From: Thermoanaerobaculia bacterium
Lineage (GTDB): Bacteria; Acidobacteriota; Thermoanaerobaculia; UBA5066
Length of the DNA: 64,000 nt
Reading direction: 5' to 3'
NCBI GenBank assembly: GCA_963719225.1
Contig: CAVRAY010000001.1
Coordinates: 2,560,001-2,624,000 of the forward strand
The translations under genes and the position numbers were made by a program. Shown piece after piece: positions 9,791 to 55,566 of the stretch. Within the stretch, counting starts at the first letter, position 1; each line of letters starts with the position of its first letter. The notes below the pieces were generated by a model, which searched no databases, was not told the origin of the DNA, and saw only the letters and a program-made list of their open reading frames with translations.

Positions 9791-12700
9791 ATGAAGAACG
9801 GCACTTTCCGCCGGCGCGTCCGCAGTCTTCTCCAGCCCGTCGTCATCGCTTCGGCGCTCGGAGGGCTTTTCGTGCTGCTCTTGCCGGGGTGCGCGGTTAC
9901 GTTTGATGCTGACCGGGAGTACGACTTCTCGGACCTCCAGGTCGGCGAGGACGGTCGGCTCGTGCCCATTCCGGGCGCCATCAACTTGAGGGGGGCCGCA
10001 GTAGGGGCCGCAGCAGACGCGCTGTTCGCAGCGAGCGGCAGCGCCCCCTGCGGGACCGCAATCGACGGGAACGGCAGCTCCAAGTCCGCCTGCATCCTCC
10101 GGCACAACGCGACCGAGGTGGATCAACCGAATGCGATCAACGACGTCTCGGCCAATGGAAACACGGTCGCCACAGCGTTACAGTCGGGCGTCTTAGTTAC
10201 GAACCTCTCGAACGGCACCACCAGGACCATCAAGATCACACCAGTCCAGAACGCGCCCGTGACCAGGGTCCTCGTGACGATCCACGTAGAAGACGTCATC
10301 GTCGCAGGCCAGAAGGTCTACGGCTGCAAGCCGCAGAACCCGGCCCCGCCCGAGGTTCCTTGCGAGGAGCTTCCCGGCATCCCCGACAACTTCGGGACCG
10401 CCGTCGCCATGATAGAAATGCAATCGGGCGACGTCTACGTCGCCTATCCGACTGGAATCTTCAGACTCCCAGCCGGGGGGCAGGCGCTCACGCCGGTGTC
10501 CGTTCCGCCGGGTATCACGTTCACGTGCCTCGGGCAGTACGACAAGAACGTGCTCTTTGGAACGTCAAACAACGGCGCCGGGGCCATACTCGAGTCGGGC
10601 ACAGTCGTCCAGCTCAACACCGGCATCAGCCCGCCGTACAGAGTGAACGCGATCGCGGGGAGCAACTCGAACCTCGCTTTCGCGGGCCAGAAGGACGGAG
10701 ACAGCTTCGTCGTCAGCAGCTCCGATGGCGGCGTCACCTGGGGGCCGGGTGTCCACGTCAGGGTCGAGGACGGTGCCGTGGTTCCCGTGGAGACGATCGA
10801 CGGCCTCGCGTACGCGCCGGGTTCGACCGGCGGCGCGGGCAATGTCGTGCAACCCCTGGTCGACCCGCCGCCCGCGCTCTACGCCGGGACGAACGCGGGC
10901 GTCTTCCGTTCCCCGGACAACGGCGCCTCCTGGGCGCCCTTCAACCAGGGCGTCGCCTCGGCGACGGTCACCCGAGTGCTCGTAACCCCCGATCGCGTCT
11001 ATGCCGGCACGTACCACAACGCCAATTCCGTCTACCGCTCGTCCGACGGCCTTGCTTTCTCACCCGGAAATGCCGTGCTCGCCAATCAGGCGACGCGCGC
11101 CCTGGCCGCCGTGGGAGACAACGTGGTCGCCTCCGGCGAGACCGGCATCTTCCGCTCCACCGACGGCGGCGCCACGTGGGTCAAGGGCGTCGCCGGCCTC
11201 CCGGCGGGGACGTATTTCTTCGGTCTGACGACGCTCGGCGCCAGCATGGTGGGCGGGTCGGTGTATCTCAACGCGACCTCGCCGGGAGGCGTCTACCGCA
11301 GCACGGACGGCGGCGCCACCTGGACGCGGACCAGCCAGGGGCTGCCCACCAACATCAACGTCACGACGTTCGCCTCCAGCGGCGCCCTCGTCGTCGCCCA
11401 GGTCACCACCTCCAGCGCGCGAGCCATCTACCGGAGCACGGACGGGGGGCTCACCTGGTCCAAAGGAGCGGAATTCACCCAGGGCAGTCCGGTGGCGCTC
11501 GCGTTCTCCGGCTCCACCCTTTACGCGGGCCTGACCGGGACGGCGTCCGAGCACCTTTACAAGAGCACGGACGGCGGATTGACGTTCACCCCGTCGGGCA
11601 GCGGCCTCGGAAACAGGCAAGTCCTTTCGCTGACGTCGGCAGGCGACACGCTCTTCGCCGGCACGTACACCGGCCTCTACGCCAGCACGGACGGCGGCGC
11701 GAGCTGGTACCTCTTCTCCAGGCGCCTGGAAAGCATCTCCGTGTTCTCGCTGGCCGCCTCCGCGAGCAGGGTCTATGCGGGAACGGTCGGGGCCTCGCTC
11801 AGGGTCTTCGACCTTCCACAGCGCGTGAAGCGACTCGTGCCGATCGTCCTCGACGTCGCCACGGGGGCCACGCGCTTCACCACCGAGCTCGCGCTCACGA
11901 ACGCCTCCGCGAAGCCGCTCGACGTGTCGCTGTCCTACACCGCCTCCATCGGCTCGGGGACCGGAATGGTCCACGAGCAGCTCCAGGCGGGTGAGCAGAA
12001 GGTGATACCCGACGCGATCTCGTTCCTGCGCGGCAAGGGCGTCGCCATCCCGTCGTCGGGCTCGCAGGGGGGGACGCTCCTCGTCACGTTCGAGGGGGCC
12101 GGCGACTCGAGCCTCGTGGCCGTGACGGCCCGCACGACGGCCGCGACGCTCGCCCCGCAGCCGGTCGGGAGTGCGGGGCTTGCCTATGGCGGAGTGGACC
12201 CGGCCGCGGGCTTCACGGGCGGCGTGATCGTCTACGGCCTGCGCTCGAACGTGACGGAACGGTCTAACTTCGCGGTCTACAACACCACCGCCCAGCCGGT
12301 GACGCTGAAGGTGACGGCGATTTCCGGCTCCGGCGATGGCCGGCAGGCCGTGATCGCGGACGCCGAGACGCTCCCGCCATACGGATGGAAGCAGTACAAC
12401 GGGATCCTGGACGGCGCCGGCATGACGAACGGCTACGTGAAGGTGGAGCGCACGTCCGCGACCGGAGCATTCGGCGCCTACGGCGTCGTGAACGACAACG
12501 GCACGAACGACGGATCGTTCCTGGAGCCCACGCAGGGCTTCCTCGTGCCGTACCTCAACGTGCCGGTCCTCGTGGAGACCTCCGCCTTCCTGAGCGAGCT
12601 GCTCCTCGCCAACTCTGGCGTCAGCGAGGCGGTCCTGGAGCTCAGCTATCGCGAGTCGCTCGCGCCCTCGGGAGGCAGTGGCACGGTGACGGTCCGGCTC

Positions 12701-53532: not shown

Positions 53533-55566
53533 ATGTCGCTTCGTCTCGCCGCCGGCGTCCTTTCTCTCTCTTTCGCCATCGCCTCGGCCGCGTCGGCCGT
53601 CACCGTGCCCGTCTCCGTGACCGTGACGTACGGCACGATGACGCTGCCTCCCGGCTCGAGCCCCGCCGCCACGTCGTACATCGCCGCGAGCGCCGTCCTG
53701 CCAACCGAGGTCCTCAACGATCTCGCCGCGGCTCATTCTTCGATCGCGCCGCTCCTCGTCGCGCTTCGCGACTCGGGGGGGCCGAACACGAGCCTCGCGA
53801 ACCTCTTCAACGTCGCCTCGCATCCGGAAATCGGTTTCGGCTCCGTGGTCCTGAAATCAGGGTCGGTCGTGACGGACGTCCGCGACGCGGCGCAGATCCT
53901 GCGCCAGGCGATCGTCCTCGGCCTTCCGTCGACGGGCACCGGCCAGACCGTTCTCTCGACGTCGCCAGCGGCTCCTTCCCTCGAGAGCTACACGTACCCG
54001 AACCTCGTCGTCTCGTCGGGCCCCGGCGGCTCGGGCGGCACGTTCGACGGGCGCGTCGACGTGAGCCTCTCGCGCCTGGACTTCACCGTCGCGAATCCGC
54101 CGGCCGGCGTCACGGTGCCGATCGTCCTCTCGTCGTCCGGCCTCAACGGGTCGTTCTTCACGTCGGAGCTGACGCTCTCGAACCGCGGAACGACGGACGC
54201 CTCGATCACGTACGCCTACACGGTCGCCGCCGGCTTCGCCGGCGCGAGCGGGACGGCGACGGACACGCTCGCCGCGGGACGGCAGAAGGTCGTGCCCGAC
54301 GTCATCGAGTTCCTGAGGACCCTCAACGTTCCCGTCGGCACCTCCGGCAATCGGGGCGGCACTCTGAAGATCACGTTCACGGGCCTTTCGTCTCCGGACG
54401 CGGGAACGGCCACGGTGCGCACGACGAGCGCGGTCGCCGGCGGCCGCGCGGGACTCTCCTACCCGGGACTCCTGTCCACCCGCCTCCTCTCGGCACCCGT
54501 CGTGATCGCCGGCCTCCGGCAGACGGACACGGACCGCTCGAACGTGGCCGTTCTGAACGCCGGCGGCCCCGCGGACGGCAACATCACGCTTCGACTGACG
54601 GTCTTTTCGGGAGACAAGGGAAGCAACGTGTTCCGCGCGCTCCCGGACGTCGTCCTTTCCCCGGGCGGCTTCAGCCAGACCTCGGGTGTGCTCGCGGCGT
54701 TCGGCCTCAACCTCACGAACGGCTACGTGAAGGTGGAGCGCATCGCGGGGACGGCGCCGTTCTTCGCGTACGGCATCATCAATGACCAGGCCACCTCAGA
54801 CGGTTCCTTCGTGGCGCCGGTCCCCGTCGCTCCCGAGGCGCCGATCGCGAATCTCACGCTTCCGGCCCTCGTCGAGACGATCTCCTTCTCCACCGAGCTC
54901 GTCCTCACGAATTTCTCTGACTTCCTGCGCGGCGTGCAGCTCACCTTCTACTCGTCCGCGGTCACGGGCGGGTCCGCGAGCCTGCTCATCAAGCTGGAGG
55001 GCGGAGAGCAGCAGATCCTCCCGAATTTCGTGCAGCTCCTGAGGGACCGCGGCGTGATCAGCAACGCAGCCGGGCCGGTCTTCGCGGGCCCGCTCGTCGC
55101 TCGCGACACGACCGGGGATCTGCGCGGCATCGCCGTGGGCGCCCGGACGTCGACGCCGGGCGGCGGCGGCCGCTTCGGTCTCTTTTCGGAAGCGGTGCCG
55201 TCGGGCTCGCAGGCGACCGAGCGCGCCTGGATCTACGGCCTTCAGCAGAATGCCGACAACCGGACGAACCTCGCGGTCGTGAACACGGGCTTCGACGGCG
55301 GCGCCGACACGTTCCGGATCGACCTCTTCGACGGCGCGACGGGACAGCCGATCGCGCAGCCGACGACGCTCTCGGTCCCGGCCGCGGGATTCGTCCAGCT
55401 CAACGCGATCCTCGGGAACAACGCCCAGAACGCGTATGCCCTCGTCACGAGGACGTCCGGATCGAGCCCGTTCCTGTGCTACGCCGTGGTGAACGACGGC
55501 GCCATTGCGGGACAGCGCACCGGCGACGGCGCATTCCTCCAGGCGGACGTGCCTGGGGCCCCGTAG
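53533..55566 (+). CDS. Secreted protein: unknown N-domain + C-terminal four-subdomain module
   Basis: AGGAG SD, signal peptide MSLRLAAGVLSLSFAIASAASA; from ~54106 colinear with the C-terminus of 9791..13276, ending GQRTGDGAF. Confidence 0.88.
   Translation: MSLRLAAGVLSLSFAIASAASAVTVPVSVTVTYGTMTLPPGSSPAATSYIAASAVLPTEVLNDLAAAHSSIAPLLVALRDSGGPNTSLANLFNVASHPEIGFGSVVLKSGSVVTDVRDAAQILRQAIVLGLPSTGTGQTVLSTSPAAPSLESYTYPNLVVSSGPGGSGGTFDGRVDVSLSRLDFTVANPPAGVTVPIVLSSSGLNGSFFTSELTLSNRGTTDASITYAYTVAAGFAGASGTATDTLAAGRQKVVPDVIEFLRTLNVPVGTSGNRGGTLKITFTGLSSPDAGTATVRTTSAVAGGRAGLSYPGLLSTRLLSAPVVIAGLRQTDTDRSNVAVLNAGGPADGNITLRLTVFSGDKGSNVFRALPDVVLSPGGFSQTSGVLAAFGLNLTNGYVKVERIAGTAPFFAYGIINDQATSDGSFVAPVPVAPEAPIANLTLPALVETISFSTELVLTNFSDFLRGVQLTFYSSAVTGGSASLLIKLEGGEQQILPNFVQLLRDRGVISNAAGPVFAGPLVARDTTGDLRGIAVGARTSTPGGGGRFGLFSEAVPSGSQATERAWIYGLQQNADNRTNLAVVNTGFDGGADTFRIDLFDGATGQPIAQPTTLSVPAAGFVQLNAILGNNAQNAYALVTRTSGSSPFLCYAVVNDGAIAGQRTGDGAFLQADVPGAP

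Follow-up and report, generated by a model that had tools for sequence, protein, structure and literature searches.

A tandem beta-sandwich module on many secreted proteins of a Thermoanaerobaculia bacterium: a putative ASRAH variant and candidate envelope anchor

Four secreted proteins of the window and their shared module

We analyzed a 64,000-nucleotide stretch of the genome of a Thermoanaerobaculia bacterium (phylum Acidobacteriota; assembly GCA_963719225.1, contig CAVRAY010000001.1, positions 2,560,001 to 2,624,000), referred to as the window, in which four genes encode secreted proteins that share a module of four subdomains in the order A-B-A-B (ABAB) (Table 1). Proteins are named here by the lower coordinate of their genes. 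An earlier reading of this DNA from its letters and open reading frames (ORFs), referred to as the sequence-only reading, had placed the four ORFs correctly, and independent gene calls give starts at 9791, 53533, 37980, and 40718. It had also assigned signal peptides to all four proteins; judged by eye, these are present, and that of the 9791 protein ends in a lipobox-like cysteine.

Hidden Markov model (HMM) profiles of A and B recovered the alternating pattern in all four genes. These profiles were seeded with the four window proteins and iterated on the genome, making the scores of the four seeds circular; across the genome, they matched 42 six-frame ORFs and none of the same ORFs reversed. 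The consensus motifs proposed for A and B need small corrections, in that the second A of the N-terminal copies lacks the VP and their first B lacks the G(L/I)(R/Q); the motifs with which the two C-terminal copies were said to end alike are found. The C-terminal modules of the 9791 and 53533 proteins are 37% identical over 492 residues (E 1.5e-80), the two N-terminal modules are 82% identical, and the N-terminal and C-terminal types share 25 to 32% identity (best E 1.7e-6 to 0.011 in a four-sequence database). Because the 35257 and 38004 proteins are recent paralogs, the four genes of the window represent three cargo types. The ZU5 match of the ZU5-like region is below the cutoff (E 0.016). 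No Pfam or NCBIfam model covers the module in scans of the four proteins.

Table 1. Features of the window and related loci of the source genome
Feature	Coordinates	Strand	Evidence
Secreted protein, 1,161 aa: N-terminal part of no known family, BNR beta-propeller, C-terminal ABAB	9791..13276	+	Translation, gene call, Pfam scan, profiles
ABAB module (four ASRAH-like beta-sandwiches), stops 2 residues short of the stop codon	11831..13267	+	A/B profiles
Secreted protein, 677 aa: N-terminal domain (~170 aa) without a known family, followed by C-terminal ABAB	53533..55566	+	Translation, gene call, Pfam/NCBIfam scans
ABAB module; copy used for the structure model	54109..55545	+	A/B profiles, model
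Secreted protein, 907 aa: N-terminal ABAB, ZU5-like region (below cutoff), variable C-terminal part	35257..37980	-	Translation, gene call, Pfam scan
ABAB module immediately following the signal peptide of 35257-37980	36559..37905	-	A/B profiles
Secreted protein, 904 aa: paralog of 35257-37980, C-terminal part differs	38004..40718	-	Translation, gene call, sequence comparison
ABAB module immediately following the signal peptide of 38004-40718; 82% identical to the 35257-37980 copy	39294..40643	-	Profiles, alignment
Extracytoplasmic function (ECF) sigma factor (PF07638), possible regulator; divergent from the two N-terminal-module genes, 43 bp off	40761..41366	+	Neighbor scan
Ser/Thr kinase paired with the ECF sigma factor	41363..43583	+	Gene call, neighbor scan
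Other ECF-kinase pairs beside module genes in the source genome	C1:361730, C1:532139, C1:2467591		

Fold of the module and its relation to the ASRAH superfamily

Subdomains A and B are homologous to each other (hhalign 97%, E 1e-10), and the basic unit is therefore one domain. Structure prediction of the 482-residue module at 54103-55548 using a 150-row alignment gave a predicted local distance difference test score (pLDDT) of 97 and a predicted template modeling score (pTM) of 0.94, and DSSP assigned eight strands to the first A domain of the model; a single-sequence prediction (pLDDT 37) was discarded. A and B are two diverged copies of one eight-stranded beta-sandwich, and the pTM predicts a single rigid body made up of all four sandwiches.

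In an exhaustive structural alignment against 48,161 solved chains, only TM1070 (1NC7; Z 11.4, root mean square deviation [rmsd] 2.8, 105 residues aligned; second A domain) and ASRT (2II7; Z 8.2, rmsd 3.4, 92 aligned; second B domain) reached a Z of at least 8. The following match had a Z of only 7.1, and carbohydrate-binding modules (CBMs) were among the matches at this level and below. Foldseek against the PDB returned generic Ig-like matches, with TM-scores of 0.17 or less among the matches listed and no solved protein with the whole arrangement, and a sequence search against solved chains gave no match to the module (best E 1.1). Among predicted structures, FirrV-1-C4 of a brown-algal virus (Q6XLX4, 525 residues) spans the whole module (TM-score 0.48, rmsd 7.9, E 1.8e-9), far above the other matches (TM-score of 0.20 or less); we found no paper on this protein in a literature search.

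TM1070 and ASRT are members of the ASRAH superfamily as defined by De Souza, Iyer, and Aravind in 2009 (PMC2739507). TM1070 is a tetramer, in which a cleft lined by strand 2, with His25 and Cys29, is walled by the dimer interface; secreted ASRAH members are always dyads or tetrads, and they were proposed to bind peptidoglycan or capsule glycans (PMC2739507). A transitive profile comparison linked A and B to tetrad domains of other Acidobacteriota classes at 97% and the latter to ASRT at 95 to 96%, while four Ig-like control profiles scored 3.5% or less. These divergent four-domain blocks, which bridge the module and ASRT, lie mostly at the ends of large proteins, and some have a WYFAEG-type motif.

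Aligned to ASRT, the strand-2 motif of B has R at the place of the His, A at that of the Cys, and N at that of the Asn. The Asn that closes strand 2 in ASRAH domains is present in 95% of A but only 65% of B among 136 AB units and, in the source genome, in 90% of 62 A and 49% of 65 B. The strand-1 Trp of the superfamily is mostly lost (at most 13% in A and 11% in B, first columns), with aliphatic residues there instead. The ASRT model PF07100 has no match on the four proteins or in the genome, and R and A occupy the H and C positions of its SHEshChhN signature; the ASRT family itself is a solo intracellular domain. Because the strand-1 Trp is lost and no database model covers the module, we file it as a variant: on profile and model evidence, it is probably a homologous Acidobacteriota form of the ASRAH superfamily and not a textbook member. 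Shared with the superfamily are the sandwich of ~110 residues and eight strands, the strand-2 Asn, the occurrence as dyads or tetrads, and the proposed envelope-glycan binding. The module differs in its alternating A and B subtypes, the missing Trp, the replacement of the cleft His/Cys by Arg/Ala, and its presence in ~40 genes per genome on unrelated cargo instead of with one fixed partner.

The superfamily, the dyad/tetrad rule, and the idea of glycan binding were already known in 2009, and the contention that the module has no described function does not hold to that extent. What is new, as far as our literature search went, is an A/B family in Acidobacteriota that has expanded and moved between termini, together with the repeated duplication of dyads and the choice-of-anchor cargo described below; the search, with subscription journals mostly outside its coverage, found no description of the module in Acidobacteriota. 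The main text of PMC2739507 does not name Acidobacteria, nor does the term occur in the portion of its supplement that we covered, the full member list of which could include some. Compared by description only, the amidase-fused ASRAH tetrads of Chloroflexi in the 2009 paper are likewise secreted enzymes with four tandem domains. Their difference from the module is the freely varied cargo of the latter, in which no N-acetylmuramoyl-L-alanine amidase was detected among 42 own ORFs and 50 homologs scanned.

Three further families were considered as relatives. The sequence-only reading allowed that the module might already exist as an uncharacterized DUF, and this is true of some relatives but not of this genome. 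DUF5719 (PF18986), which we take to be the actinobacterial ASRAH family, matches some module proteins of the same class at the sites of the AB profile with up to 36.9 bits (cutoff, 26.2) and 1 of 31 AB units at E 0.0014; it is over the cutoff neither in the source genome (10 of 20 candidates scored) nor on the four window proteins. Module proteins also differ from that family in being mostly not lipoproteins, and no WhiB/glycosyltransferase neighborhood was seen. IgGFc_binding (PF17517) as a relative was not supported by profile comparison: A, B, and related profiles reached 3.8% or less against a shallow 9-sequence alignment, and there was no match in the genome. The likeness of the lectin CML1 to TM1070 is described as loose in the part of its authors' paper covered here (PMC9191617), and we did not use it as evidence.

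Extent, architecture, and candidate role

The source genome (4.75 Mb) is 97% complete and 6.2% contaminated, so that counts may be slightly high. In it, 41 called genes carry the module (22 ABAB, 16 AB, and 3 irregular; none longer than four domains), corresponding to ~1% of genes (41/4,021) and ~2% of coded residues (30,558/1,430,236). Among the seven cargo-free AB calls, four have no clear signal peptide; these are possibly fragments or genes with a wrongly called start. Relatives were found in Thermoanaerobaculia, Holophagales, Terriglobia, and Acidobacteriota. Within the class, 73 of 91 genomes match at E 1e-15, 63 of them with at least 12 matches (~31 scored), and four families have no genome with a match at this threshold. 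In the phylum, 61 of 301 genomes match at E 1e-5, but matches outside the class are weak, and the ones examined belong to divergent tetrads, related to the module, that sit at the termini of large proteins; the class and phylum tallies include one unpublished genome as a single row, on which no claim depends. The module profile matches 2,815 protein clusters at E 1e-30 and 8,368 at E 0.001, the looser count being possibly inflated by some cargo columns in the profile. Two of five class genomes without a module match have weak matches to a related tetrad profile. Separately, two genomes of one family, both without a module match, have IgGFc_binding-like regions on very long ORFs (1,917 and 3,448 residues), a possible alternative module.

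All 258 full-length homologs examined have exactly ABAB, at the C terminus in 200, at the N terminus in 30, internally in 15, and without cargo in 13. Homologs were chosen by an ABAB profile, which under-counts dyads, but in a search without a length limit, in which longer arrays would have scored near the top, none appeared. In a quick tree of 58 AB units from the source genome, two groups are resolved, one with the 9791 and 53533 proteins and the other with the 35257 and 38004 proteins. Both halves of the C-terminal 53533 module are sisters to the halves of an N-terminal module elsewhere (support 96 and 100; 64% and 53% identical), suggesting that close paralogs moved between termini. In two other tetrads, the halves are sisters to each other (support 99 and 98; 76% and 57% identical), and the next relatives are single-AB proteins, while the halves of the window tetrads are only 30 to 34% identical. 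On this pattern, a dyad was duplicated into a tetrad on at least two occasions, and growth ended at four domains. The recurrence of these duplications leads us to regard a closed (AB)2 as the likely working unit and to expect dimerization of AB proteins. The gene counts, class survey, tree, and cargo scans together bear out the description of a lineage-expanded, position-independent module with interchangeable secreted cargo.

The same data bear on whether the module is a protein-protein docking or lattice unit, with tetrads tiling in an S-layer-like manner or AB halves pairing different cargo proteins as mixed dimers. Such a unit would fit the existence of cargo-free members, one of which reaches the 95th percentile of codon bias, as well as the probable need of AB proteins for a partner and the oligomeric state of the solved relatives. 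However, no protein examined has more than four domains, the median codon-bias percentile of the 41 genes is 36 with none among the 60 most biased (a weak proxy for abundance), the cargo-free subfamily is present in 15 of 91 class genomes in that query versus 73 for the module, and paralogs at 20 to 35% identity would hardly share lattice contacts. We consider a docking, scaffold, or lattice role decidedly unlikely. Of the roles suggested by the sequence-only reading, that of an anchor or sorting unit stands as the most likely, and the polymerizing or S-layer lattice is not supported.

The cargo comprises peptidases and an esterase (S8, S53, trypsin, M10, M12B, M64, and esterase), propellers (BNR, Kelch, SBBP, NHL, and FG-GAP), leucine-rich repeats (LRRs), and stalks (PKD, TIG, BACON, and CARDB), with LRR and FGE-sulfatase cargo on either side of the module. 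The fold would also suit a carbohydrate-binding accessory domain that aims freely secreted enzymes at outside substrates, such as soil or biofilm polysaccharides, and not at the organism's own cell, and the CBMs among the weaker structural matches point the same way. Glycosidase cargo is rare, though, with one (GH113) in 50 homologs at E 1e-10 and none by Pfam in 42 own ORFs, the NCBIfam "glycosylhydrolase" match of the BNR propellers is read as a propeller match, and polar residues that are near-invariant across paralogs suggest one shared ligand. An accessory role in this sense has little probability.

Those residues are found in B. Among 136 AB units with a mean identity of ~27%, R136 (98%), N138 (97%), Q179 (99%), Y207 (90%), D212 (96%), and D217 (98%) are conserved. 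Six polar or aromatic positions at 90 to 99% might indicate a catalytic, self-processing, or metal site, for example, for covalent attachment or calcium-dependent stabilization. The two best structural matches are non-enzymes, no solved sequence matches the module, and the same residues occur in both B copies and in cargo-free proteins, which makes such a site highly improbable.

Because near-invariant polar residues are shared, the domain count is fixed, the position is free, the cargoes are extracellular and unrelated, and other anchors are few, we favor, with modest confidence, a reading in which the module is a non-covalent anchor on a glycan of the organism's own envelope, working like SLH or CWB2. 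Transmembrane-like stretches were found in 2 of 258 homologs and lipobox-like motifs in 8 of 223. One ABAB homolog, unflagged by the hydropathy filter, has a 47-residue tail with a short hydrophobic run and basic residues at the end, resembling a membrane sorting signal. As an anchor, the module would be exported with its cargo by the Sec-type route through the N-terminal signal peptide seen by eye in the sequence. The four domains would fold into a single-chain mimic of the TM1070/ASRT homotetramer, with the compactness predicted by the model and the ring geometry presumed, and single-AB proteins would complete the tetramer by dimerizing. In the B domains, the near-invariant Arg, Asn, Gln, Tyr, and Asp may then contact a ligand common to all copies, the Arg sitting, according to the alignment, at the place of the TM1070 cleft His25, and the module would present its cargo (protease, propeller, LRR, or Ig-like stalk). 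Candidate ligands are an outer-surface polysaccharide, reached via a type II secretion-like system, or periplasmic peptidoglycan; the cargo types favor the outer surface over the periplasm.

The parallel to SLH (PF00395) and CWB2 (PF04122) is functional. Based on the parts of two papers that we covered, both form closed trimers with conserved arginines for anionic wall glycans, and CWB2 anchors 29 proteins in one genome (PMC5270738, PMC6081394). A fixed tandem number in a closed pseudo-oligomer, tens of proteins per genome, varied cargo, and conserved Arg residues are common to these systems and the module. In contrast, SLH and CWB2 are helical trimers of monoderms with an unrelated fold, and their wall-glycan ligands have been demonstrated, whereas that of the module is putative. 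The module model is all-beta, no Pfam model matches the module, and SLH has no match in the genome (controls matched in 4 of 14).

Alternatively, the module, once folded, might serve as a tag for secretion or sorting that is recognized by a translocon of the outer membrane, type II-like or other, in the way of the type IX secretion system (T9SS) C-terminal domain. The T9SS C-terminal domain and TIGR03437, the Solibacter C-terminal domain, are likewise lineage-expanded, beta-rich, and present on many secreted proteins with similar cargo; both are C-terminal by definition. A tag would fit the 213 of 258 modules that end within 12 residues of the C terminus and a cargo that overlaps that of known sorting systems. 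NCBIfam choice-of-anchor domains, which pair with varied sorting signals, are over the cutoff in 2 of 37 own proteins and 5 of 48 homologs scanned (of the 258), and an M36/PA protein resembles, below the cutoff, myxosortase-, T9SS-, and rhombosortase-dependent families. The genome also contains a gene cluster that encodes T2SSF, T2SSE, a secretin, and N-methyl pilin-like proteins, and no other known sorting signal is over the cutoff on the module proteins scanned. The two IPTL-CTERM sorting signals over the cutoff in the source genome (C1:365239 and C1:3111008) are not on module proteins.

On the other hand, 45 of the 258 modules are not C-terminal but N-terminal or internal in position and keep their motifs, and NCBIfam has no match to the module, which sets it apart from the T9SS C-terminal domain and TIGR03437. 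Some AB and ABAB proteins carry no cargo at all, the last residue is not conserved as a single one (P in 126 and E in 42 of the 213), no partner gene recurs nearby, and 480 residues are large for a tag. Secretin, tried as a partner that tracks the module, was rejected because it is also present in five of five class genomes without a module match. We regard a sorting tag as unlikely. A broader proposal would make the tetrad an address label, usable at either end, of an undescribed Acidobacteriota surface-display pathway that routes cargo across the outer membrane, possibly in a type II-like manner, and docks it on the envelope, with AB half-tags forming mixed dimers; we rate this, too, as an unlikely possibility.

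Several observations weigh against the envelope-glycan anchor that we favor. The 2009 sugar-binding proposal rests on context and a bound ethanediol (PMC2739507), and a sugar ligand is inferred even for the founding ASRAH family, with no demonstration for any ASRAH domain in the literature covered. Compared directly with ASRT, the A and B profiles score low (15 to 47% and 55 to 79%), and the conserved B residues could have a structural, inter-domain, or metal-binding role. Unlike in the actinobacterial family, no recurring gene for glycan synthesis was found next to module genes (121 own neighbors and 45 foreign loci). The organism is a diderm (LptD is present), and SLH and CWB2 are hence an analogy only. 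The predominance of modules close to the C terminus is that of a sorting tag. A crude hydrophobic-start test was passed by 146 of 223 homologs and by 63% of the 41 own genes versus 33% of all genes, with starts uncertain, and the AB-unit tree has SH-aLRT support alone.

Neighboring genes and implications

The sequence-only reading had proposed profiling for co-occurring secretion genes, and no dedicated secretion system was found beside module genes in the 121 own neighbors and 45 foreign loci. Nor was any dedicated partner gene detected among the 121 neighbors scanned of 209 listed or recurring in the foreign loci, with the exception of a Ser/Thr kinase gene, which in several genomes follows genes of one module subfamily on the same strand. 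A search for SprA gave no match, and its controls were silent too.

The two N-terminal-module genes of the window lie beside an ECF-kinase pair (Table 1). The kinase frame is open to 46405, but a different frame holds a plausible C-terminal part with its end at 43583, corresponding to an apparent frameshift near 43300 that is either real or an assembly error. Four of the eight ECF-kinase pairs in the source genome are within 4 kb of a module gene, versus 7% of other genes, and 6 of 41 module genes are near such pairs versus 2 of 258 other secreted-like genes; the 4-kb threshold was set post hoc, and the four pairs near module genes had served as seeds of the ECF profile. In other genomes, a module gene is close to two of six ECF-kinase pairs, one of these two being from the same genus, and none of the 45 foreign module loci has an ECF of that type. 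Overall, the link between ECF-kinase pairs and module genes is suggestive.

In 9 of 12 loci, the gene immediately upstream of the cargo-free AB gene encodes a DUF4331 protein (two by Pfam and the rest by BLAST cluster), and some of these loci have HupE/UreJ or ferritin-like genes nearby. In the source genome, a second cargo-free AB gene has a DUF4331 gene no more than 1 kb away. Three adjacent genes without the module at C2:706335-708960, with signal-peptide-like starts, are among the 60 most codon-biased and are candidates for major exported proteins. In the window, other neighbors are a fused 2-oxoglutarate dehydrogenase, complex I subunits, and a MacAB-type exporter (16964-20668, 32033-35183, and 46348-49668), an M16 peptidase pair directly upstream of the 53533 gene (50639-53472), and a BNR propeller protein without the module (62531-64000). 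An overlapping ORF pair on the minus strand (5805-8023) is possibly a single gene for a secreted protein that is split by a frameshift; the downstream ORF encodes HYDIN/ASH Ig-like domains.

Pfam and NCBIfam have no model of the module yet; with such a model, much of the surface proteome could be predicted for a class that is mostly uncultured. Should the module prove to be a sorting tag, it would provide an export signal that can be transplanted. Should it prove to be a glycan anchor, diderms would have an equivalent of SLH and CWB2, and the ASRAH sugar-binding proposal of 2009 would be directly testable with a soluble 480-residue construct and one obvious Arg mutant.

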